DNA from: Elusimicrobiota bacterium
GTDB taxonomy: Bacteria > Elusimicrobiota > Elusimicrobia > Elusimicrobiales > UBA9959
Direction: 5' to 3'
Assembly: GCA_037137395.1 (NCBI GenBank)
Contig: JBAXKK010000080.1
Span: 1 to 10,784 of the forward strand
Length of the DNA: 10,784 bases
This document shows, piece after piece, positions 353 through 10,784 of the stretch (positions are counted from its first letter, which is position 1; each line of letters begins with the position of its first letter). The notes under the pieces are model-generated. The model ran no database searches. It was not told the DNA's origin and saw nothing but the letters and a program-made list of their open reading frames with translations. The position numbers were made by a program, and so were the translations under genes.

Positions 353-1255
353 TTACTCTGATTTTGTTTTGATGCCTATTGCTGCCAGCCCCTTGCGGAT
401 CTCATTTTTTGCGTATTCCCCGCCACCGTCGTTGTCCCAGCCGCTGAATTCGTCCAGTATTTTCCCGTCTTTAATGAAGTAAAAAGTTGGAGATATCCTC
501 AAGAGGGTGAAGCCGGGAAAGTCGCTTGATTTTCGCGCCATATATACCGCATCGAAATTGGAGTGTTTTTTTACGGTCTCAATGCCCGCGGGATCGAACG
601 CCCTGGTCAGCATAAATCCTTTAGCGCGAAAAACAGGTCCGAGTTCCGAATCTGCAAATATCCCGTCCGCGGCCATTTCAGCGAACTCACATCCGGGACG
701 CATAACCATTACGATCGCCTGACCGCTCTTCGGAAGCAGCTGCAGGTTAACTTTTTTCCCTTGTTTTGAAACCTTATATACCCACCACCCTTCAGGCTTG
801 GCGGTATCCGCCGGAACGATTTCAGGGACTTCCGGCAAAGACTTGTCGGGGAGCTCCAGCCGTAGCGCAGCAGCTTTGCTGAATAGCCCTGACATAATGA
901 AAGCATTATACATGCGCTCGGTATCATCCCCCGTGGTTTTTCCCCTTCGGCCCTTTTCTTTGAATGCGCTCTCCATCCTTAACGTGTAATTCTCTTCGTC
1001 AGGCAAGTAAAGAGAGATTTTCATTAACGCGTGAAACAGTGAGTCTACAGCTTTATCCGAATATTTTTTCATGCGCGTCGGAGACAGATCTTCCGCTGTA
1101 ATTGAGGATGACAGGTTATTGATGGCATCCATATCATGCTTTCTCCCGGCAGCGGAAACTTCTTCGGATACCTTCGCAAGTCTAATTTCCGGACCGGTAC
1201 ACCCTGCCACCAATAGCGTAGCCGATAGAGCCATAATAATGTTTATGTTTTTCAT
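353..1255 (-). CDS. Lipoprotein with C-terminal thioredoxin-like fold (single-Cys CxxA site)
   Basis: 300 aa with lipobox VAGC at residue 19 and RBS-like GGAG upstream. VMVMRPGCEFA occupies the CxxC position, and SPTFYFIKDGKILDEFSGW matches the thioredoxin cis-Pro/beta-hairpin pattern (PT-hydrophobic-KDGK). Confidence 0.75.
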   Translation of the reverse strand: MKNINIIMALSATLLVAGCTGPEIRLAKVSEEVSAAGRKHDMDAINNLSSSITAEDLSPTRMKKYSDKAVDSLFHALMKISLYLPDEENYTLRMESAFKEKGRRGKTTGDDTERMYNAFIMSGLFSKAAALRLELPDKSLPEVPEIVPADTAKPEGWWVYKVSKQGKKVNLQLLPKSGQAIVMVMRPGCEFAEMAADGIFADSELGPVFRAKGFMLTRAFDPAGIETVKKHSNFDAVYMARKSSDFPGFTLLRISPTFYFIKDGKILDEFSGWDNDGGGEYAKNEIRKGLAAIGIKTKSE

Positions 1256-1306: not shown

Positions 1307-2050
1307 TTACTTGCAAGTTGTCGTATTACACTTGTATCCATCCTCAAAGTCGCAGCCGCGGAGAACAACGTTACCTTTCGCCCCAGTAGAGGCGTTGCAG
1401 GCATAATCGGTAAGAATATGCCGTGATTCTGGCCCAGGTGCTGGCGGCATAATTATACTGAGTATCTCTTCGAATCTTTCAGGAGTAATTGCCTTTTCCA
1501 GTGCATCGGTTTTAATAGAAACCATGGCGCCATTTAAAAGCTTCATATTATCCAACAAATCCTCCTTGGTCTTTTCTGGAACACCCTGCAGGAGCTCCCC
1601 TATTTGTGCCATAGGGTGTTCAACAATGGGGATGTGTGAATCCATGTTTTCTTCCCGGAATTCAAAGGCCAGCAGAATTTCCTCTATTCTTGCGAGGGAT
1701 AGTCTATTCCGCTCTAGAACCGTATAATCCCGGGCGGCCACTCTCCCATTTGTTAATTTTATGCTGGACATAAACTCCACCCGGTCTTTGGCGGAAAGAT
1801 CTTTTAGCAGATCTTTTACGACAATAATGCGATCTTTGTACGGATTTGCAGTATCCTCCGCGGCGGATTGGCTCACAGCCTGAGGTGTGGGAACTTTTTG
1901 CGTTTCATTATTCTCATTCACCTTAGCTATTACATACGGGTTCATGCTTTTATTTTCAGAACCGTCAAATGATACGGCCACATTCTCCGCATTGGTGAAA
2001 CCAATCCCTAAACATATTATACCGATTACTGCCATCATTGTTTTCTTCAT
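1307..2050 (-). CDS. Secreted hypothetical protein (247 aa) with two internal ~50-aa repeats and a 4-Cys C-terminal tail
   Basis: Start moved from 2101 to ATG at 2050: GGAGG lies 5 nt upstream, the signal peptide reads MKKTMMAVIGIICLGIGFTNA, and the longer start falls inside the terminator. The repeats share xLL...KLxNG...LE...RxEEIL. The tail is YACNASTGAKGNVVLRGCDFEDGYKCNTTTCK. Confidence 0.85.
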   Translation of the reverse strand: MKKTMMAVIGIICLGIGFTNAENVAVSFDGSENKSMNPYVIAKVNENNETQKVPTPQAVSQSAAEDTANPYKDRIIVVKDLLKDLSAKDRVEFMSSIKLTNGRVAARDYTVLERNRLSLARIEEILLAFEFREENMDSHIPIVEHPMAQIGELLQGVPEKTKEDLLDNMKLLNGAMVSIKTDALEKAITPERFEEILSIIMPPAPGPESRHILTDYACNASTGAKGNVVLRGCDFEDGYKCNTTTCK

Positions 2051-2080: not shown

Positions 2081-2120
2081 CAAACAAAAAAGGGAAAGCA
2101 AATTTTAATTTGCTTTCCCT
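2081..2120 (-). terminator. Intrinsic terminator in the 5' leader (riboswitch expression platform)
   Basis: Perfect 14-bp inverted repeat, 2091-2104/2107-2120 (AGGGAAAGCAAATT/AATTTGCTTTCCCT), followed on the minus strand by TTTTTGTTTG, about 30 nt before the start codon. Confidence 0.85.
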
Positions 2121-2181
2121 GGATACACCGGATTACGGTCCGGTCGTGGATACTCCGGGGCCAACCCCCCGAATTACAAGG
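2117..2181 (-). ncRNA. Purine-riboswitch-family aptamer, variant core resembling the 2'-deoxyguanosine-sensing classes
   Basis: Minus-strand RNA: CCUUG-UAA-UUCGGGG-GGUUGG-CCCCGGA-GUAUCCAC-G-ACCGGA-CCGUAA-UCCGGU-GUAUC-CAGGG. This gives a three-stem junction P1/P2/P3, L2 ending in UGG and L3 CCGUAA (the kissing-loop pair), J1/2 UAA, and J2/3 GUAUCCAC versus canonical GUUUCUAC. It sits between a promoter and a terminator. Confidence 0.8.
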
Positions 2182-2200
2182 TATTTCTTACTACGGTAAT

Positions 2201-2873: not shown

Positions 2874-3006
2874 GAGCGGTTTGTGGGCGGTTTTTGGGGG
2901 TAACCCGGTGCAGAAATACTGTAAAGCGCGGCTTCACCCATCGGGTGAAATCTTTTCCACTATGGGGGAACGCTCTTAGCGGAGGATTAGCGTATTGAAC
3001 TCCTAG

Positions 3007-3035
3007 TTGCAACACTCCCTTCTATACGGTAGAAT
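3007..3035 (+). promoter_or_regulatory. Putative sigma70 promoter of the plus-strand operon
   Basis: TTGCAA (3007-3012), a 17-nt spacer, then TAGAAT (3030-3035). Confidence 0.55.
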
Positions 3036-3081
3036 GCTTTAGGGGATAATGACTTCCATATCTCGTCTTGGAGGCGGAATG

Positions 3082-4452
3082 ATGCTTAAAATATTGCTAG
3101 CCTGTCTTGCTGTATTTTTTACGATTCGGCCATTCGTATCCGCAACAGATGTGCCAGTTGATTTTGATGGAAAATATTCAAAATCTTCCAACCGAGCCTT
3201 GCAACTATCAGGCATACAAAGACCAACGGCAAAAATAAATGTCAGCCTTCGTTTAGACGACGGAACCATAATACCCATCGAACCCGCAATCGATAAATCC
3301 GGAACCAAGCATTATTCGTTTGTGCCGGGGCGCAATCACGCCAGGATTAACTATACATGCAGCGGCCCTACAGGTCAAACATATACATGGTATCTTCAAG
3401 TAGCGCCCACTTTTAACTTTCCGCAGGATGCCGGGCATAGGCATTCATTGCCGAATATTCTCAACAGTGGCGATTGCAAAAAACACACACAACGCCCATG
3501 TACTCCGGTCCCGCCTGCTTCAGTTGCATATCTTATCAACGGCACTCCCTGGCAACCTGGAGGTTCTATATCGGGAATGATTACGTCCCCGCCACTAAAT
3601 CAAAACTCTGTTTTTACTGTTTACATGGATGATCCCAAGTATGCGACGCAATTAATTACACAAGTGGCATTTAATGGTGCATGCACGATGGCGGAAACCG
3701 CCTCTATGGATATATTAGTGCCAAGCCTGCAGGAATTACCGTTAGATCCCTCTTATGTGCTTGGCGGCAACAATCAATTGCATCCATTCAATCACTATGC
3801 CACCATCAATACCGTAGCGGCAATCTCGGCCTTAGGCAAGCAATGGCGGAAAACGCACGCAAGCGCGAACAAGCTAGTGTTTAATGACATGAGTCTGAAG
3901 TGGGGCGGGCTTTTTGATGTGTTTGGGAACTGGACTGGTTCACACTCAAATCATAGCTTCGGAACAGCGTTAGATTTAAGTAAGAGATGCGTTAAAAAAT
4001 CCAATCGTGCTGCTTTGATAAGACTAATGGACGACCTAGGGTTTACCGTTCAATCCGAAGGAAATACACTTGATGAGCAGAATCATTACCACATACAGTA
4101 TGCCAAGGAGATAACCCGTCTCAGGGGTATTCAGGGCTTTCCCATAACCGCTGATGGGAGAATGGTTGGGATTTCAGAATATGCGGACGAGAGTTACGAG
4201 TCCGATGGCGGAAGTATTGGCCCGGTAACACCTCCCCCACCGATAAAATCGGTTTCTAGTTGTGGCTTAGCCATTAAGGCCTATCCAAATCCTACGTTTA
4301 ACTGTGACACTGGCGTCGATATCAATGGGGTGCCTCTTGCTGGCACAGCTAATACCTACTGCCAATGTATCAACCTTTACGTAAAAAACATGGAGGGGGA
4401 AATTGCCGTTTTAAGGGAACCGGGCGATTCCGAGCCGGCCAATTGCTATTAG
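3082..4452 (+). CDS. Secreted protein with MepA-like (LAS superfamily, M74-like) zinc peptidoglycan endopeptidase domain
   Basis: Signal peptide MLKILLACLAVFFTIRPFVSA. GGAGG at 3070-3074 favours ATG 3082 (or 3079) over 3049. Motifs: NDMSLKWGG, HSNHSFGTALD (Hx6D) and HYH (HxH). The flanks are Cys- and Pro-rich. Confidence 0.75.
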   Translation: MLKILLACLAVFFTIRPFVSATDVPVDFDGKYSKSSNRALQLSGIQRPTAKINVSLRLDDGTIIPIEPAIDKSGTKHYSFVPGRNHARINYTCSGPTGQTYTWYLQVAPTFNFPQDAGHRHSLPNILNSGDCKKHTQRPCTPVPPASVAYLINGTPWQPGGSISGMITSPPLNQNSVFTVYMDDPKYATQLITQVAFNGACTMAETASMDILVPSLQELPLDPSYVLGGNNQLHPFNHYATINTVAAISALGKQWRKTHASANKLVFNDMSLKWGGLFDVFGNWTGSHSNHSFGTALDLSKRCVKKSNRAALIRLMDDLGFTVQSEGNTLDEQNHYHIQYAKEITRLRGIQGFPITADGRMVGISEYADESYESDGGSIGPVTPPPPIKSVSSCGLAIKAYPNPTFNCDTGVDINGVPLAGTANTYCQCINLYVKNMEGEIAVLREPGDSEPANCY

Positions 4453-4471
4453 CGAGATTCCGACAAATACT

Positions 4472-5863
4472 ATGCGAATAATTTCTGCAAAAATATCGAC
4501 CTCTGTGCTGACACTCCTTCTGGTGTCAACTGTTTGTTCTTCGGGACAAAATATCGCCACTAGTTCCGCTTCGGGCGTACACGAAGGAATGATTCCTCAT
4601 GCGTCCGTGGTTGTTTCATCTTCGATTAATCAGCCGCATTTTGAAGCACGAGGCGTTGGAGGTGGAGACGACAGGCCTGAACCGCCGGCATACGAACTTA
4701 AACATGAATACCAGGAAGCTTTGCGCTTAACCAGGGAACAAGAAATGGCGTTGCATGGTTATTTGCCTGATTTTAGAATGTGGGCTATAACGGATTATCC
4801 GGCTGGAATCAAGCACTATCACTTTACAAATAAGCAGCTGCCGTATATCATCAAGGGCGATTTTGATGGAAACGGAAAAGAGGATGTAGCTGTCGCCGGA
4901 CAAACAACGGACCGGAACATGATCTTGGTAATCATGTCCGATACAACAGGCTATTCTATTCTGCCGCTGTGGTCTTATGAAAAATCTGACTTGCAATACG
5001 TTGATATACTTCATTTGTTAAGAAAGGGGACAAAATTCTCTCTTGATGGTGAGGAAATGCCCGGTGAAGAAGAATTGATACAAAATGACGGCATCCTTTA
5101 CTCACAAGATTTTGCCGGTTCAAAGTCTCCTTATGGGTACGATCTTACGGACGCGCACACTATTTTTAGATATCACGAAGGACTTGCCGGCGTGGTCCCC
5201 GTGGAAGTCGGTTCTATAGCTTCGGCTGCCTTCAAGCCTGAATACATAGAGAAGCTGGCTTTAAGCCCTGCTATGTCAAAAGCTGTTCATGCGTACGATA
5301 AGGATTTTGAACCATGGACAGTGCAGGATTATCCGGCTGACATCACTTCGGCGTATCACTATTCCGAAAAATCTCTGCCATACGCTGTGAGAGGGGATTT
5401 TAACGGCGACAAAATCGAAGATATGGTAATTGCCGGATATAATAATGACGGCAACCGGCTTCTTGTAGTCCTATCAAGCGCCACGGACTATACTGTCATT
5501 GAAAGGCGCGACTCAGGGAGTAGACACTGCTACTCGCAAGCCCGAAAACTGGGCAAAAAAATCTCGCACATCCCATCTGATGTTGTAAGGCTATATGCAA
5601 AAGGTCTCCAAATTAATAACACGCCAGGCGTTCCGGGCAGAATGCTGGATACTGAGAGCTTCAGTATTCAAACCATAAAGGGTTGCACAACAGATGTTTA
5701 TGTTCCCGATAAAAATGCTGGGCACTTCAACACCATTTTTGGTGAGTGGCAAATAGTTAAGAGCTCTCAGCCTGGCTTTATTGGATATGACAGGGGCTTT
5801 GAGAAAAAAGATTATTTCAATTTAAGATTGATTAAGCCATATCCAGCGCGAGAGCTACGATAG
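4472..5863 (+). CDS. Secreted protein with two homologous domains, each with an FG-GAP/VCBS-like GDFxGxxxxD motif
   Basis: 463 aa with a signal peptide. Repeats: WAITDYPA...LPYIIKGDFDGNGKEDVAVAG and WTVQDYPA...LPYAVRGDFNGDKIEDMVIAG. Confidence 0.75.
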   Translation: MRIISAKISTSVLTLLLVSTVCSSGQNIATSSASGVHEGMIPHASVVVSSSINQPHFEARGVGGGDDRPEPPAYELKHEYQEALRLTREQEMALHGYLPDFRMWAITDYPAGIKHYHFTNKQLPYIIKGDFDGNGKEDVAVAGQTTDRNMILVIMSDTTGYSILPLWSYEKSDLQYVDILHLLRKGTKFSLDGEEMPGEEELIQNDGILYSQDFAGSKSPYGYDLTDAHTIFRYHEGLAGVVPVEVGSIASAAFKPEYIEKLALSPAMSKAVHAYDKDFEPWTVQDYPADITSAYHYSEKSLPYAVRGDFNGDKIEDMVIAGYNNDGNRLLVVLSSATDYTVIERRDSGSRHCYSQARKLGKKISHIPSDVVRLYAKGLQINNTPGVPGRMLDTESFSIQTIKGCTTDVYVPDKNAGHFNTIFGEWQIVKSSQPGFIGYDRGFEKKDYFNLRLIKPYPARELR

Positions 5864-5869
5864 GTTGCA

Positions 5870-6487
5870 GTGCGTTCTGTAGTATTTGGCGTTTCTATGT
5901 TTTTACACGGCCTGATTATAACGGTTCCATTAATCTTGTATCCGCATTATGCGAATGCGTCCGCGCTGGACATTGAGTCCATGAACAGCCGCGGTTTCGA
6001 TATAAATCCACATGGGTCGGAAAAAACAGTAACCGCCTCCCATGCCTACACCAACCACTACGAAACTAGTGCGACAGTATCCGCTCTTGAAGCACTGGCG
6101 GCTGAATGGAAAAGCGTCGCGCCGGGAGCAGGCCTGCTTAAAATAGGGGACATAAGTCTTCCTTGGGGCGGAACTATGGACCGGAAAGACGATTGGAAAG
6201 CGCAGGGGATGTCGCACGGGTTCGGAATAGAGGCCGACATCGGTAAACCTGGACAGAAACAAACGGAAAACGCCGAACTGATACGGTTAATGTGCGGAGG
6301 CGGGTTCATTGTTCGCAAAGAAATTAACGAGGGGGGAGAACCGCATTCCCATATCATTTATGAAAAAGAGCTGAAGCGTGTGAAAACGCTGAAATGGCCG
6401 GTCGTCGCCTTGGCCGGGGCAAAAGGTGAGATGAATTGCTGCACGGCTCAATCCATCTCTAGGGAATATCAAATCTGCGTAGAATAA
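5870..6487 (+). CDS. Second MepA-like LAS peptidase, paralog of the catalytic domain of 3082..4452
   Basis: N-terminal hydrophobic/signal segment. NHY, GDISLPWGG, SHGFGIEAD (Hx6D) and HSH align with the larger protein. Confidence 0.7.
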   Translation: MRSVVFGVSMFLHGLIITVPLILYPHYANASALDIESMNSRGFDINPHGSEKTVTASHAYTNHYETSATVSALEALAAEWKSVAPGAGLLKIGDISLPWGGTMDRKDDWKAQGMSHGFGIEADIGKPGQKQTENAELIRLMCGGGFIVRKEINEGGEPHSHIIYEKELKRVKTLKWPVVALAGAKGEMNCCTAQSISREYQICVE

Positions 6488-6496
6488 GAGGTAGCT

Positions 6497-6790
6497 ATGG
6501 ATAAGGAATACGTTATAAAGTCTTTAAACATGATCGGTGAAGCCGTCCTTACGCTTGAAAAAGCGAAGGATCGCATTGAGTTTGAAGCGTTACCGATGAT
6601 TGCTCTTGGCTGTAACAATGTGTATTGCCCCAAAGAGACTTGCGGAGCATCAGTTATTGTGGTCCCACCAGGTTGCCAGGGTAAAATTCCAGAGGTTCCA
6701 CCGCCGACCTGCGCATCGGGATATCATCCCCAGCCGACGCCACCAACACCGCCATCACCAGTCCCAGGTGGAGGGGACGGTGGTGATTGA
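6497..6790 (+). CDS. Candidate RiPP precursor peptide (Cys-rich core, Pro-rich tail)
   Basis: 97 aa with GAGG RBS and no signal peptide. A ~38-aa Cys-free leader is followed by Cys at 39, 44, 49, 60 and 72, and 16 Pro in total. It lies two genes upstream of a SPASM radical SAM gene. Confidence 0.6.
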   Translation: MDKEYVIKSLNMIGEAVLTLEKAKDRIEFEALPMIALGCNNVYCPKETCGASVIVVPPGCQGKIPEVPPPTCASGYHPQPTPPTPPSPVPGGGDGGD

Positions 6791-6821
6791 TATACTAAAT
6801 ATCGCACATATGGAGAAAATA

Positions 6822-7577
6822 ATGAAAAAATATCATATTATGCCCTTACTTATATTTGGCACACTACTCGCGCTGAACCCCGGAAATGCGCGATGCAATG
6901 ATCTCCAAGATGCCAAATTAGCAGTTGACGATGACGGTGCCGATTTTGACAAGCAGATAGCTGACACCAGCGAGAAAGTAAAGGAGGCTATGCGTTTGCT
7001 GCGATATAGCAAGTTTTATAAAGACTTGTATGCTTCTATTGACAATGGGCAAATTAAAGAGGCTGAACAGCTTCTGAGCGAGGAATTGAAGAGATCTCCT
7101 GATGCTGAACGCCAAGCGTCATATCTTGCTGCAAAAAGCAAAATTGCTTTTGGGAAAGGAGATTACGCATCAGCCTATGCGGAGGCTGACAAAATTGTAA
7201 TTGGTATGGAGAAATTCTTTGCGCCAAAAAAGCCCTACGAGATTAAGTTTAAGACTCCAAATACCAGAGATGGGGTGCATGGGGCGTATATACTTCGGTA
7301 TCAGGCATCCGCGTATCAACATCATTATGCCGAAGCCTTGGCTGATATCGAACACGCGCTGCAAATTCAATCATCAGCTGATGGGCTTATTGCAAAAATG
7401 GGAGCATTGATGGGACTGAATCGATATGCGGAAGCGGCCAGGGCATGTGAAAAATCCTGCAAGATAGATAAGAGTTTTTTCCTCTCAAGCCCCAATAAAG
7501 CTTATTATCTCCAGGTTTTTAGCGAGCATGGCTATTCCTTAAAGGCCTGCTTGCAAAATAAGTCGGTAAAAAAATGA
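6822..7577 (+). CDS. Secreted tetratricopeptide-repeat-like protein (251 aa)
   Basis: Start moved from 6600 to ATG at 6822: GGAG at 6812-6815, signal peptide MKKYHIMPLLIFGTLLALNPGNA, and no overlap with the precursor. TPR-like helices: GDYASAYAEADKI, HHYAEALADIEHALQI, NRYAEAARACEKSCKID. Confidence 0.75.
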   Translation: MKKYHIMPLLIFGTLLALNPGNARCNDLQDAKLAVDDDGADFDKQIADTSEKVKEAMRLLRYSKFYKDLYASIDNGQIKEAEQLLSEELKRSPDAERQASYLAAKSKIAFGKGDYASAYAEADKIVIGMEKFFAPKKPYEIKFKTPNTRDGVHGAYILRYQASAYQHHYAEALADIEHALQIQSSADGLIAKMGALMGLNRYAEAARACEKSCKIDKSFFLSSPNKAYYLQVFSEHGYSLKACLQNKSVKK

Positions 7578-7601
7578 TTCTGTTCAGAATGAAGCTGCGA
7601 A

Positions 7602-9007
7602 ATGACTGAAAAACACTATGTCAGCCGGTATCTGAACATTATCGACCTCGACGATCCCAAAATAAGTCTATTATTCAATGGGGTGAATGGTTGCATGGAT
7701 GAGATTCCCCGTGAGCTGGGCGATATACTCTCATCACGCGACCATTCGCGCATCGCCAGGCTTTCTCCGGCCAATAGGAAGTTTCTCGCTCAACGCGGGC
7801 ATATTACGACATTCACTCCAGAAGCAGAGATGGCGCGATTTAAAGAGTTCGTCGCCTGCCTACACAATAAAAAAAGCACCAGCTCACCGCCGGTGGAATT
7901 ATTCTGCTTGTAAGCTATAACTGTAATCTTGCCTGTAAATACTGTTATCAGCAGGCTCATCGGCCCGGAAAATCCCATTCTGTAATGAGCGCGAAACTGG
8001 TAGACGACATTTTTGAAAAGTATTTAACCACTTTGTTGCCTACGATCTCTAATCCATGCTTATCCTTGTACGGCGGCGAGCCTTTTTTACCGGGTAATGA
8101 GGCTATAATACGCCGAATGTTGGAACATTCCGGAAGACGCACGGGAATGGCGGTTACCGCCGTTACAAATGGCATCACGGTGGACGCAATGCCGAATGTT
8201 TTTGGTCCTGGTCCGGGCAAGATTGGTAAAGTCCAGATATCTCTTGATGGCGGACGACGTTTTCATGATGGCTCAAGAACAACGACTTCCGGGGATGCCA
8301 CCTTTGACAGGATACTAAAAAACATCCAGCTATTGATTAAGCAGGAAACCTATGTTGATGTCCGCATTAATGTTGACAAGTCAAAGGTGGATAGCCTCCC
8401 GCAATTACTGGAGGAATTAAGGGCAAAGCGCATATTAGATAATAAGTTTGTGCATGTTTACGCATACCCACTGCACGATGGAATAGCAACAGTGGATTCA
8501 ACGGGCTTTATCACTATAGGTGCACTCTCTCGCAAGTTGCGCGAACTCGGCCTTGATGTTCACTGTCCTATCAGTCTGCATGCTAATGATTTCCGGTATC
8601 TTTTCGATCTAAAAGGTGGTGTCGGTCTAATGCGTACCGCATACTGCATGCAGACATACCAACAGTATCTTGTGGTCGATCCTGTCGGCGATCTGTACGC
8701 CTGCTCAGAGGAAGCCGGATACCCTGAATGGCGTGTTGGACATATAGGAGAAGCTGGCGTGGAATTTTTTCCATTGCGTGATTCCTATAAGGCTCGGCAC
8801 TTGGCCAATCTTCCGTCTTGCCTCGCATGCGCGGTTGCGCTTGCCTGCGGAGGACAATGCGGTATGCGGTGTCGTGTCAAGACGGGGGATATGTTTAAAC
8901 CTTATTGCGATGATATAAAAGACGCGATACTTTCGGGTATTAAGCTGGCTTATGAAAACCATAGAGCTATCGGGAAGATGCCTCCAATACCTGCTGCTAA
9001 TGCGTAA
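7602..9007 (+). pseudogene. Radical SAM/SPASM peptide maturase, frameshifted at the A7 run 7869-7875 (468 aa if restored)
   Basis: ORFs 7602..7913 and 7985..9007 join if one A is added: ...LHNKKKHQLTAGGIILLVSYNCNLACKYCYQ... The CxxxCxxC motif at 7922-7945 is in frame with YGGEP, VTNG, QISLDG and the SPASM cysteines (YC...GDLYAC...CLACAVALACGGQC...C...YC). The N-terminal ~90 aa resemble the RRE-like extension of peptide-modifying rSAMs. Confidence 0.85.
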
Positions 9008-9052
9008 GTCGTAACCGCCAATCAATTGAATAAAGTATAACCCTGCGAAACA

Positions 9053-10153
9053 ATGCCCGATAATGTTTACGAGAACCATCTTAAAGGTGAATACGGGATC
9101 GAAAATGGCGAAGAAGCCCTTATTGTTACCCCCGAGTCCTGCTACTATCTGAGCACAGAGACCCGGTGGTTGATCGATAATTTACCAGCGGCGGGTAATA
9201 AGGGGGACTACCTGTCATCACTCACCTCCCTTGGCGTAGAACAGGCCGGGGGAATATTCGACCGACTTATAAATATTAATGTTTTGCGGATCAAGACCAC
9301 AGAAAAATTAATAAGAAAACTAATCGGTCATGTCCTGAAGCCCAAAATAAGACTTATATCTGCAAAATGGCAGGAAAATGTTTTCAGGCCAGTCCAGACC
9401 AAACTATCACAGGTGGCATCTGAAAATATTTTGCCGCTAATTCTCTGCCTTGCCGCCATAGGTTTGGCGTTCGGCCTGTTTATTCCACTAAAGTTTCACG
9501 GCGGACTTGTGCAGCTTTCCGAAGGGCGCTCTCAAGCACTTCTGATATTTGGCCTGGTCCTACTGGGTAGCTTGATACATGAACTGGGGCATTCATTCAC
9601 GGCGGCTATGAGTGGCATAGGATTCCGGCCTATCGGCATATCGATTTATCTATTTTATCCGGTCTTTTATACGAATGTGGCAGGCATTGAAAAGGTATCT
9701 TTCTGGCGTAAAATAGCCATAGACTGTGGTGGATTTGTTTTTCAGACGGCGTTCTTGTGGATTCTTATGGCAACTTGGTTTATAACCAGAAATATTTCTC
9801 TTCTGGAATCCGTACGATGGATGGCGCTAATCATGGCATTCAATCTGAACCCGTTATTGCGCACCGACGCGTACTGGCTGTATCAGGATGTCCGTGCGAC
9901 GGTAGGCAACAAACGGTTGATGGATTTTCTGCATTACGTCTACTCGGCGGCATTTATTATTTTTACATGCTATATTTTTATTTGTATCTGGCACGAATTT
10001 AACTCGATAATAGCCTCTGCTTTGATAATTTGGGCACATCCGCATCGGCTACCGCATGACGGTTACAAAATTATCATAGGGTGCTATCTTGTGCTCATGG
10101 CTTGCATTGGTGGAATTGCTCGGATGAAAGAAGGGCACAAAGAACTATTCTGA
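9053..10153 (+). CDS. M50 (site-2 protease family) membrane zinc metallopeptidase with soluble N-terminal domain
   Basis: HELGH (HExxH) lies within a TM segment, and FNLNPLLRTDAYW is an NxxPxxxxD(G/A) third-ligand motif. There are several TM helices and a ~90-aa soluble N-terminus that may be RRE-like. Confidence 0.8.
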   Translation: MPDNVYENHLKGEYGIENGEEALIVTPESCYYLSTETRWLIDNLPAAGNKGDYLSSLTSLGVEQAGGIFDRLININVLRIKTTEKLIRKLIGHVLKPKIRLISAKWQENVFRPVQTKLSQVASENILPLILCLAAIGLAFGLFIPLKFHGGLVQLSEGRSQALLIFGLVLLGSLIHELGHSFTAAMSGIGFRPIGISIYLFYPVFYTNVAGIEKVSFWRKIAIDCGGFVFQTAFLWILMATWFITRNISLLESVRWMALIMAFNLNPLLRTDAYWLYQDVRATVGNKRLMDFLHYVYSAAFIIFTCYIFICIWHEFNSIIASALIIWAHPHRLPHDGYKIIIGCYLVLMACIGGIARMKEGHKELF

Positions 10154-10262
10154 AATCGCGTTCGTCTCCGTTGTATGGAGAACTTGCCCAATAAATTTGT
10201 CATAATATGACATATAGGAAAGTAATATGGGAGGAAGCACTAATAGAATTTTAAAATTATTC

Positions 10263-10519
10263 GTTGGCTAGATTTGCCAACAATTTGACTTCAACCGGGA
10301 CCTTGCATAAGAGCAGGGAGAGCTTCCAAGTGAAAACTTGGGGCATATATCAGACCGTGTTCGGGGTCGCCAATGTAATCCAGCGCAAGCTGGGTGAAAA
10401 GGCGGCTGTCGTTCCGGGTTACTGATATAGCTCGGGGCTGATTGCCGCCCCATTTTTTGGTGGCAGACTGAATTTGCAGCCCTCTATGGTGAAGTTACGC
10501 CATAAGGGGCTTTTGTTTT
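10263..10519 (+). ncRNA. Unidentified highly structured RNA candidate
   Basis: Dense array of stems, two GNRA tetraloops (GAAA 10332-10335, GCAA 10385-10388), many plus-strand G-U pairs and a terminal terminator. It is a GC-richer island within an AT-rich intergenic region. Confidence 0.55.
10478..10519 (+). terminator. Intrinsic terminator
   Basis: AGCCCTCTATGGTG...CGCCATAAGGGGCT stem followed by TTTGTTTT. Confidence 0.7.
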
Positions 10520-10613
10520 ATAAGGAAGTATGCATTGAACAGGTATGGGTAATGCGAGAGTGAATTTTTAACCAGCACATATATTGATAACAATGGGGTA
10601 ATAACATAACACT

Positions 10614-10751
10614 ATGGCTACAATACAATTTAAAGGTAAAGAAATTGTTCGCAATCATCATCTCACGGTGCCGTATCACGAACTGCTGCCGGACGAAAAG
10701 AAAAGCTTAACCAAGAAAATCAGCTTAACTGTGTTAACGCCAGTCTTGTAA
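10614..10751 (+). pseudogene. 5' fragment of a type III restriction-modification DNA methyltransferase (Mod), interrupted by an insertion
   Basis: MATIQFKGKEIVRNHHLTVPYHELLPDEKKSLTKKISLT resembles the conserved Mod N-terminus (FKGK...HHLxVP) that normally continues into DNLIIHGDNL. Here the frame runs into unrelated sequence at 10732 and stops at 10751. Confidence 0.7.
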
Positions 10752-10784
10752 TGTACCGGTTTAGTCGGTGTTAAGTGTACCAGC
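10732..10784. mobile_element. Terminal sequence of an IS21-family-like element (continues beyond the window)
   Basis: Begins TGTTAACGCC (5'-TGT end) and has internal repeats ending TGTACC at 10752-10757 and 10776-10781, 24 nt apart. This is the multi-repeat end architecture of IS21 elements, and it starts exactly where Mod similarity ends. No transposase is visible in the window. Confidence 0.6.

Follow-up and report, generated by a model that had tools for sequence, protein, structure and literature searches.

What does a four-gene cluster on a short contig of an Elusimicrobiota bacterium (Elusimicrobiales, UBA9959) produce, and by what chemistry? The genes in question encode a Cys- and Pro-rich peptide, a tetratricopeptide repeat (TPR) protein, a radical S-adenosylmethionine (SAM) enzyme with a SPASM domain and an M50-type protease. 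All four lie on the plus strand at 6497-10153 of the window, a term used here for the whole stretch analysed, i.e. contig C80 (JBAXKK010000080.1; 10,784 nucleotides) of assembly GCA_037137395.1, which comprises 2.70 Mb in 174 contigs. An initial annotation made from the sequence alone had proposed a new cluster for a peptide made ribosomally and modified post-translationally (RiPP), and its four genes, down to the Cys spacing of 4, 4, 10 and 11 in the precursor, were recovered as described. The locus very probably encodes a RiPP pathway, and the cluster is of a RiPP-type family named in neither Pfam nor NCBIfam. By analogy with characterized enzymes, thioethers are somewhat favoured as the links within the core peptide. 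The best explanation of the whole, a RiPP with leader-gripping enzymes, ranthipeptide-like thioethers and membrane release, stands at about an even chance.

The precursor of the window consists of a conserved leader, a short hydrophobic stretch (residues 33-38) and a core with Cys at 39, 44, 49, 60 and 72 and a net charge of -2; its tail is Pro-rich and Gly/Asp-ended, 16 Pro falling within the last 65 residues. A search with this single sequence returned, among 4 candidates, only itself, and a leader profile was needed. From 1.84 billion proteins the profile retrieved 59 clusters (formed at 50% identity); in 57 these are proteins of 55-144 amino acids with the leader at their N-terminus, and the remaining two, long repeat proteins, were dropped. 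Conservation in the family is confined to residues 1-32 (with SLN, LTLEKA and RxEFEAL), the remainder being variable. Every one of 56 cores contains Cys, between 1 and 12 residues with a median of 5; Cys and Pro account for 11.8% and 13.5% of core residues, respectively, and no fixed Cys spacing was found among these 56. The signature of the family is the leader and not the spacing of Cys. A leader conserved in front of varying cores, with up to five precursors per locus, supports the RiPP reading.

No Pfam or NCBIfam model, including those for SCIFF, subtilosin and YydF, matched the window precursor, in line with the dissimilarity from these three peptides that the initial annotation had claimed. 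None of 13 relative precursors matched NCBIfam either (0/13), so that 0/14 precursors fall under any NCBIfam model, among them the precursor models of SCIFF, PapB, CefB, TIGR04463 and geopeptide. A cluster look-up of 10 precursors yielded a single name, 'hypothetical protein'. Leader-profile matches occurred in 15/401 genomes of the phylum, in 13/47 of the window's family and in 0/118 of a sister family and, with the whole family searched, in 21/80 genomes. Two candidates were set aside: the 2926-residue member P0061, in which no leader is visible, and an ESM Atlas lead from the precursor to the quinohemoprotein amine dehydrogenase gamma subunit (0.78, below 0.9, and without a structural match). 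The precursors at L076:8992-9363 and L079:4874-5155 are orphans that lack a neighbouring enzyme gene, their genomes carrying a cassette at another place, and a 389-residue frame at L031:471-1640 has a precursor-like leader and core at its C-terminus, a possible fusion.

The association of peptide and enzymes recurs across loci. Near-full copies of the radical SAM enzyme from 61 loci were merged at 97% into 41 distinct ones; counts are given as merged, the procedure having hidden L024, where precursor and TPR gene are present, behind L033, which has neither. Similar peptides beside homologous enzymes, the check that the initial annotation had set for itself beforehand, were found: 32/41 loci have a leader match, with 1-5 precursors each. 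Among the nine without one, four end 230 bases or less upstream, the leader of L114 and L119 is divergent, the precursor of L111 contains an IS3-type insertion sequence (IS) element, and L017 and L033 have no precursor at all. The M50 gene is present in 38/38 loci having more than 400 bases downstream. A transporter was not seen as a regular neighbour when the open reading frame (ORF) listings of the loci were inspected by eye, no profile search having been made, and none is found among the ORFs and Pfam matches of the window, as the initial annotation had remarked. Enzyme relatives in genomes amount to 22 loci at 51-66% identity, 17 of them labelled Elusimicrobia; other labels include Spirochaetota, Oligoflexia and Hydrogenedentota, one locus each, the last being identical to an Elusimicrobiaceae locus. 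Broken copies were observed at L111:3295-4679 (the IS3-type element in the precursor), L017:4935-6143 (an enzyme without its N-terminal domain) and L037:4704-5294 (a fragmented enzyme).

The radical SAM enzyme was modelled on the example of L016, an intact relative with 63% identity to the 3' part of the window gene (predicted local distance difference test, pLDDT, 79). Its N-terminus forms three strands and three helices, a fold of the RiPP recognition element (RRE) type, and the model aligns with CteB from residue 11 onwards (Foldseek E 1.6e-15; VIA Z 23.7, root-mean-square deviation (rmsd) 3.5, 374 aligned), which at the level of a model bears out the RRE-like region noticed from the sequence. 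The protein anSME equals CteB in Z, though without an N-terminal domain, and CteB is also the best match among solved proteins by sequence. The seven SPASM Cys are invariant in 17/17 aligned rows. The window enzyme, with its CxxxCxxC at nt 7922 and a seven-Cys SPASM domain, fits the pattern CxxxCxxC plus CX9-15GX4C-gap-CX2CX5CX3C-gap-C, the first SPASM element being CX13GX4C in its case (SPASM motif: PMC6231123). The best NCBIfam models for the enzyme are those of Cys-rich-peptide maturases (CefB, PapB, TIGR04463 and geopeptide); the best NCBIfam score of the window part is 106.7 bits versus a cut-off of 525, and two intact relatives reach at most 126 bits on maturase models whose cut-offs are 340-600.

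The protease of the cluster had been read as an intramembrane M50 enzyme, and motifs, hydrophobic segments and fold matches agree. The protein has HELGH at 176, NLNP..D at 264 and five hydrophobic segments, and the membrane part of its model (pLDDT 81) matches SpoIVFB (Z 8.8), RseP (Z 8.1) and archaeal site-2 protease. Both HExxH and NLNPxxxxD are invariant or nearly so in 17 aligned rows, the third ligand ending NLNP...DA in the window and ...DG in most relatives. PF02163 is recognized on 18/71 protease homologs and not on the window protein; the 14 homologs that are named are all 'hypothetical', 7 being labelled Elusimicrobia. At residues 6-80 the model again shows three strands and three helices, and residues 5-81 superimpose on McbB 12-89 with a middling Z of 6.5 (rmsd 3.5, 74 aligned). 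The protease is thus predicted to carry an RRE-type N-terminal domain of its own. Co-folding of the leader with this domain scored 0.50 versus 0.02 for the best control and points weakly to an interaction; at least 86% of contacts are shared between runs, and the partner pLDDT is 64 or more. The benchmark mark was reached by 116/157 solved and 2/215 mismatched pairs, passes at 0.60 or below comprising just 18/157 solved pairs and both passing mismatches, and likeness to solved RRE-leader complexes may explain the score. This domain, the secreted peptidase genes among the three secreted-protein genes upstream of the precursor (3049-6487) and the reuse of leader and protease described below go beyond the initial annotation.

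From these elements, a pathway can be proposed whose steps beyond sequence and models are modelled on CteB/PapB (PMC6231123, PMC10177961), MpaP (10.1101/2023.03.08.531785) and EpeP (PMC10885120). First, the conserved leader would be held by the predicted RRE-type domain of the radical SAM/SPASM enzyme, which would likely join core Cys to unactivated carbons, giving ranthipeptide-like thioethers. The RRE-fused protease would then bind this leader and cleave within or close to residues 33-38, the hydrophobic stretch that by analogy is the likely cut region; the product would likely be set free at the membrane, with no transporter dedicated to it. The TPR protein, which has a signal-peptide-like start, would probably bind the product once outside the cytoplasm, as an immunity factor or carrier if a guess is allowed, and in the window's subfamily the peptide would probably be deployed together with secreted wall-type peptidases.

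How does such a pathway relate to known systems? The ranthipeptide systems CteB/CteA (thermocellin, SCIFF), PapB/PapA (freyrasin) and Tte1186 have in common with it an RRE, a radical SAM domain, a seven-Cys SPASM domain and a Cys-rich core behind a leader. Unlike them, the window family has neither a SCIFF-like conserved core nor a CX3D repeat, its enzyme has an additional linker His or Cys and is paired with an RRE-fused site-2 protease, and scores are 77-124 bits where cut-offs are 340-425. The cut-offs of the SCIFF (TIGR03974), PapB (NF047865), CefB (NF038107), TIGR04463 and geopeptide (TIGR04280) maturase models are not reached; the last three are the best profiles over most of the enzyme including its N-terminus, at 105-126 bits versus cut-offs of 400-600. 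In daptides (MpaA/MpaP), MpaP is described as an intramembrane site-2 protease with an RRE fused to its N-terminus that removes the daptide leader (10.1101/2023.03.08.531785). This fusion and the several short precursors per locus resemble the window, and the acidic motifs ELExMEAP of daptide leaders and RxEFEAL of the window family near the cut bear a loose resemblance. Unlike daptides, in which the C-terminal Thr is invariant, just 2/56 cores have a C-terminal Thr; no DapB, DapC, DapD or DapM enzyme and none of the decarboxylase, aminotransferase or methyltransferase genes of daptide clusters occurs in the window, and NF041824 scores 25 versus a cut-off of 300.

Epipeptides (EpeE/YydG and EpeP/YydH of Bacillus subtilis) likewise combine a radical SAM enzyme with an M50 membrane protease, and a role of EpeP in both cleavage and export has been proposed (PMC10885120). 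They differ in fold (Z 14.8 for EpeE versus 23.7 for CteB), in profile score (NF058609, 35-44 bits versus a cut-off of 225) and in their peptide, the window core being Cys/Pro-rich and acidic; no ABC immunity transporter accompanies it in the window. SuiB (streptide) and TigE (cyclopropylglycine synthase) share the three-domain build and have an Aux I linker ligand, as the window His/Cys might be, yet the alignment shows no GYW motif, the substrate has no Lys-Trp or TIGSVS motif, and SuiB has a Z of 18.1. The cluster is comparable to those of ranthipeptides, with a protease of the daptide type added, yet it fails the SCIFF, PapB, CefB, TIGR04463, geopeptide, daptide and epipeptide profile tests. 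No description of this peptide family was found in the open literature, whereas subscription atlases of ranthipeptides and radical SAM RiPPs, which lay outside the search, may list such loci; 'Elusimicrobi' and 'EFEAL' are absent from the daptide supplements searched (PMC10036551).

Several observations weigh against the scheme proposed above. The identity to CteB is only 17-19%, and the next full-length fold match is TigE (Z 22.5), a cyclopropane former. No fixed spacing between Cys and an acceptor was found in the 56 cores, in which Tyr at +3 (3.3-fold), Lys at +3 (2.9-fold) and Asp at -1 (1.9-fold) are enriched relative to Cys. Counted back from the first SPASM Cys, the 27th residue is a linker position that, in the 39 distinct enzymes showing the motif, is occupied by His in 32 and by Cys in 7. 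The window enzyme has Cys there (nt 8564-8566); all seven enzymes with Cys belong to its clade, of which one member, L083, retains His. A linker Cys or Tyr occupies the fourth site of auxiliary cluster I (Aux I) in SuiB and TigE (PMC6231123, PMC10878394), while PapB and Tte1186 use an open iron site of Aux I for binding the substrate Cys. The seven invariant SPASM Cys would allow such an open site, but the linker His or Cys may close the very site that thioether formers use, hence our doubt on thioethers. The role given to the TPR protein is weakened as well: of the initial interpretation, a precursor-bearing RiPP-type family and an RRE fold have held, but this protein is not a constant partner, its gene being an optional member present in 22/41 loci and absent from 19/41. 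Finally, MepA-like peptidase genes occur in 25/80 family genomes, 15 of which have no leader match, so the MepA-like module occurs on its own as well.

These observations leave room for the same RiPP logic with another chemistry, in which the linker His or Cys fills Aux I, the enzyme installs a C-C bond or another non-sulfur modification (e.g. on Tyr, Pro, Lys or Gly) and the Cys form disulfides after export. We consider this possible, if rather unlikely. The linker is strictly His or Cys in 39/39 distinct enzymes, as expected for a metal ligand, linker ligands are employed by SuiB and TigE, 55/56 cores contain Trp, Tyr, Phe or His with the Tyr enrichment just given, and paired Cys in neighbouring secreted proteins imply that a disulfide-forming compartment is used. 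However, fold and sequence are both closest to CteB, no aromatic residue is conserved family-wide, Cys counts are odd in 34 cores and even in 22 and hence without a pairing bias, and the L016 model, with pLDDT below 50 at 326-329, provides no geometry for the linker. It is quite improbable, in turn, that the product, instead of being a free antibacterial or signal, is crosslinked and serves in the periplasm as a subunit or inhibitor of the peptidases or TPR protein encoded with it, comparable to QhpC of quinohemoprotein amine dehydrogenase. This idea draws on the window's clade, defined from a quick tree: eight loci (L083, the window, L074 (=L016), L109, L080, L117, L077 and L106; Shimodaira-Hasegawa-like approximate likelihood ratio test, SH-aLRT, 99), all of which adjoin a secreted peptidase gene, MepA-like in seven and trypsin-like in L117, both kinds being present in L077 and L106. 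Relative to the precursor, the MepA-like gene is upstream in some loci, downstream in others and on both sides in yet others, which suggests selection rather than inertia, and the long Pro-rich tails and the negative net charge of the window core, in contrast to cationic antimicrobials, would suit such a role. Yet the MepA-like gene is absent in 33/41 loci (7/8 in the clade versus 0/33 outside) and such genes pair far more with an FG-GAP-like gene (21/30 loci) than with the cassette; kin share neighbours, so that the 7/8 amounts to one or few events, and hypervariable multi-copy cores better fit competition or signalling.

The thioether-forming RiPP reading also has to accommodate the state of the gene. 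The assembly copy of the radical SAM gene, judged by its reading frame, would yield no full-length enzyme. Four metagenome runs (X1-X4) were aligned to 6300-10400: X2 and X4, from two studies, carry an extra C after 7878 (depth 6.3 and 5.8), X1, a possible source, does not, and X3 leaves the site uncovered. Only four other base differences are listed between runs and window over this interval, and the public record L082, which equals the window over 4512 bases, likewise has no extra base. Either the frame break is an allele, or it arose as an artefact in one data set; near-identical organisms of the same lake-type population have the gene intact. Programmed frameshifting as a design is ruled out by the in-frame allele of the two other runs. 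Leaky slippage that rescues the frame could still be allowed by seven consecutive A (7869-7875) and a hairpin (7877-7896) flanking the break. A decaying island, with a peptide that is not a substrate of these enzymes, would also account for the frameshift in the assembly, for the IS1380 remnant at 2356-2811, for the broken copies L017, L037 and L111 and for the absence of a leader match in 5/6 genomes of the window's genus. This account is nevertheless hardly credible, since the intact allele was present in 2/2 independent runs covering the site, all catalytic motifs are retained, the compared stretch differs by merely the 4 base changes and the one-base difference, and the leader is conserved across 57 clusters.

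The clade has further traits in common. Its cores contain 24-36% Pro and share Cys at window positions 49 and 60 as well as Pro65, and L083 equals the window both in the 4, 4, 10, 11 spacing and in the order of seven genes. The TPR gene is present in 8/8 loci, and a trypsin-like gene lies just 5' of the precursor in L117, L077, L106 and the cut locus L078. A C-terminal Ser-x-His tail, present in most other enzymes, is absent in all eight (L070 and L092 are also without it). Seen here are Pro-rich cores with secreted peptidases, a linker His/Cys switch and, unless it is an artefact, a natural broken allele.

Table 1. Features of the 10,784-nucleotide window
Feature	Position	Strand	Basis
Lipoprotein-like gene	353-1255	-	No Pfam family
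Secreted protein, Cys-rich C-terminus	1307-2050	-	No Pfam family
2dG-II purine riboswitch	2114-2184	-	79.6 bits, cut-off 60; 63 bases upstream of secreted 247-aa gene
IS1380-family transposase remnant, 151 aa	2356-2811	-	NCBIfam match
Secreted MepA/M15-like (LAS-motif) peptidase 1	3049..4452	+	Hx6D at 302, HxH at 346
Secreted protein, two FG-GAP-like repeats	4472..5863	+	Pfam FG-GAP_3 E 2.6e-4, below cut-off
Secreted MepA-like peptidase 2, 205 aa	5870..6487	+	Hx6D at 116, HxH at 159
Precursor peptide, 97 aa	6497..6790	+	ORF and GAGG ribosome site
Precursor leader, residues 1-32	nt 6497-6592	+	Conserved, ends ...RIEFEAL (leader alignments)
TPR protein, 251 aa, signal-peptide-like N-terminus	6822..7577	+	Pfam TPR_2 E 7.7e-6, below cut-off
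Radical SAM gene 5' part, RRE-type domain (predicted)	7602..7878	+	N-termini of intact relatives 47-69% identical
One-base deletion shifting radical SAM frame	7878..7879	+	Comparison with lake runs
Radical SAM gene 3' part	7879..9007	+	Pfam Radical_SAM E 5.7e-10
RRE-fused (predicted) site-2 (M50) intramembrane metalloprotease, 366 aa	9053..10153	+	Motifs and model

The genes at 3049-10153 are co-directional with intergenic gaps of 6-45 bases and, because they share one strand and such short gaps, probably form one operon starting near 3049. A promoter scan remained at chance level (13 versus 14.9) and no Rfam match was found in 10150-10784; hairpins and a terminator-like site lie at 10261-10460, 3' of the protease gene. 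The GC content is 0.42-0.51 across 3001-10750 versus 0.524 for the genome, which together with the IS1380 remnant marks the stretch as an accessory island. A palindromic stretch lies beside the remnant at about 2280-2345. Metagenome runs containing the stretch are of freshwater or lake origin, and no RNA runs containing it are listed.

Among the secreted products, the TPR protein is hydrophobic at residues 4-20 by hydropathy, and one of its relatives clears the Pfam cut-offs of both TPR_1 and TPR_2. The combination Hx6D and HxH found in the two upstream peptidases represents the zinc ligands defining MepA (M74)/M15 murein peptidases. Peptidase 1, which probably starts at 3079, matches Pfam M15_4 with an E of 0.017 only, and peptidase 2 matches Pfam M74 and NCBIfam PRK09429, each with an E of 0.002 and below cut-off; M74 was matched in 3/9 members of the MepA-like family, at best with E 4.5e-4, also below cut-off, and no solved relative of this family was found by sequence. 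Peptidase 2 stops 9 bases before the precursor and is shorter than its relatives (337-376 aa), the middle domain being missing, with no trace of it in other frames. PliI as an identity for the FG-GAP-like protein was not retained: the ESM Atlas score of 0.83 is a lead only, and unnamed secreted clusters score 0.92-0.93. A second MepA-like gene with an FG-GAP-like partner is located at G000:C22:29799-31574, at a contig end, and no cassette gene was seen there. A short V(D/S)FDG motif follows the signal peptide in several secreted proteins of the window (3079-3170, 1960-2050) and of relatives. Outside the window's clade, secreted DUF4097 genes adjoin many cassettes (L010:6659-7351, L084:1401-2237, L090:4723-5526), and 3/4 of those tested clear the Pfam cut-off; their presence at several other loci indicates that accessory secreted binders vary. 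The 2dG-II riboswitch of the minus strand has 5 matches in the genome, of which 4 exceed the cut-off; each precedes a gene whose start is signal-peptide-like. Contig C159 has a further copy of the pair of secreted and lipoprotein-like genes together with a riboswitch, and C1 a further copy of the second gene.

Leader and protease are not confined to this enzyme. The loci L013:6689-12298 and L121:254-8104 have a related leader, a protease 31-33% identical to that of the window and Cys-free cores ending in VRG; the leader of L013, a seed of the leader profile, is 27-30% identical. Both carry NAD-dependent epimerase-like genes and another radical SAM gene, L121 having YcaO in addition, and in L114:1394-9846 YcaO occurs together with a SPASM enzyme of 32% identity. 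L119:2769-9825 is listed with these three as a related leader-protease locus. Leader and protease are thus reused with other tailoring enzymes. A bolder proposal, which we regard as unlikely in its entirety, is that the Elusimicrobiales leader and RRE-site-2 protease form a transporter-free chassis for exchangeable tailoring enzymes (the SPASM enzyme here; YcaO, epimerase-like and other radical SAM enzymes with Cys-free or divergent cores in L013, L114 and L121), on which the window's clade, with a candidate Aux I ligand changed from His to Cys, tail loss and Pro-rich cores, would make an undescribed crosslink and act with secreted peptidoglycan peptidases as an antibacterial or wall-remodelling module.

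With this family, a phylum from which hardly any natural-product chemistry is known gains a common peptide family (21/80 family genomes) and, for one enzyme type, dozens of natural substrates. Nature provides both His and Cys at the linker, with intact enzymes of either kind, which allows a direct test of a standing question, namely whether it is the fourth ligand of Aux I that determines if thioethers or other radical chemistry results. If the protease takes unrelated cores behind one leader with no cassette transporter, the family would also provide a test of whether site-2 proteases both cut and release RiPPs, and such a protease, if this is true, could serve as an engineering part.

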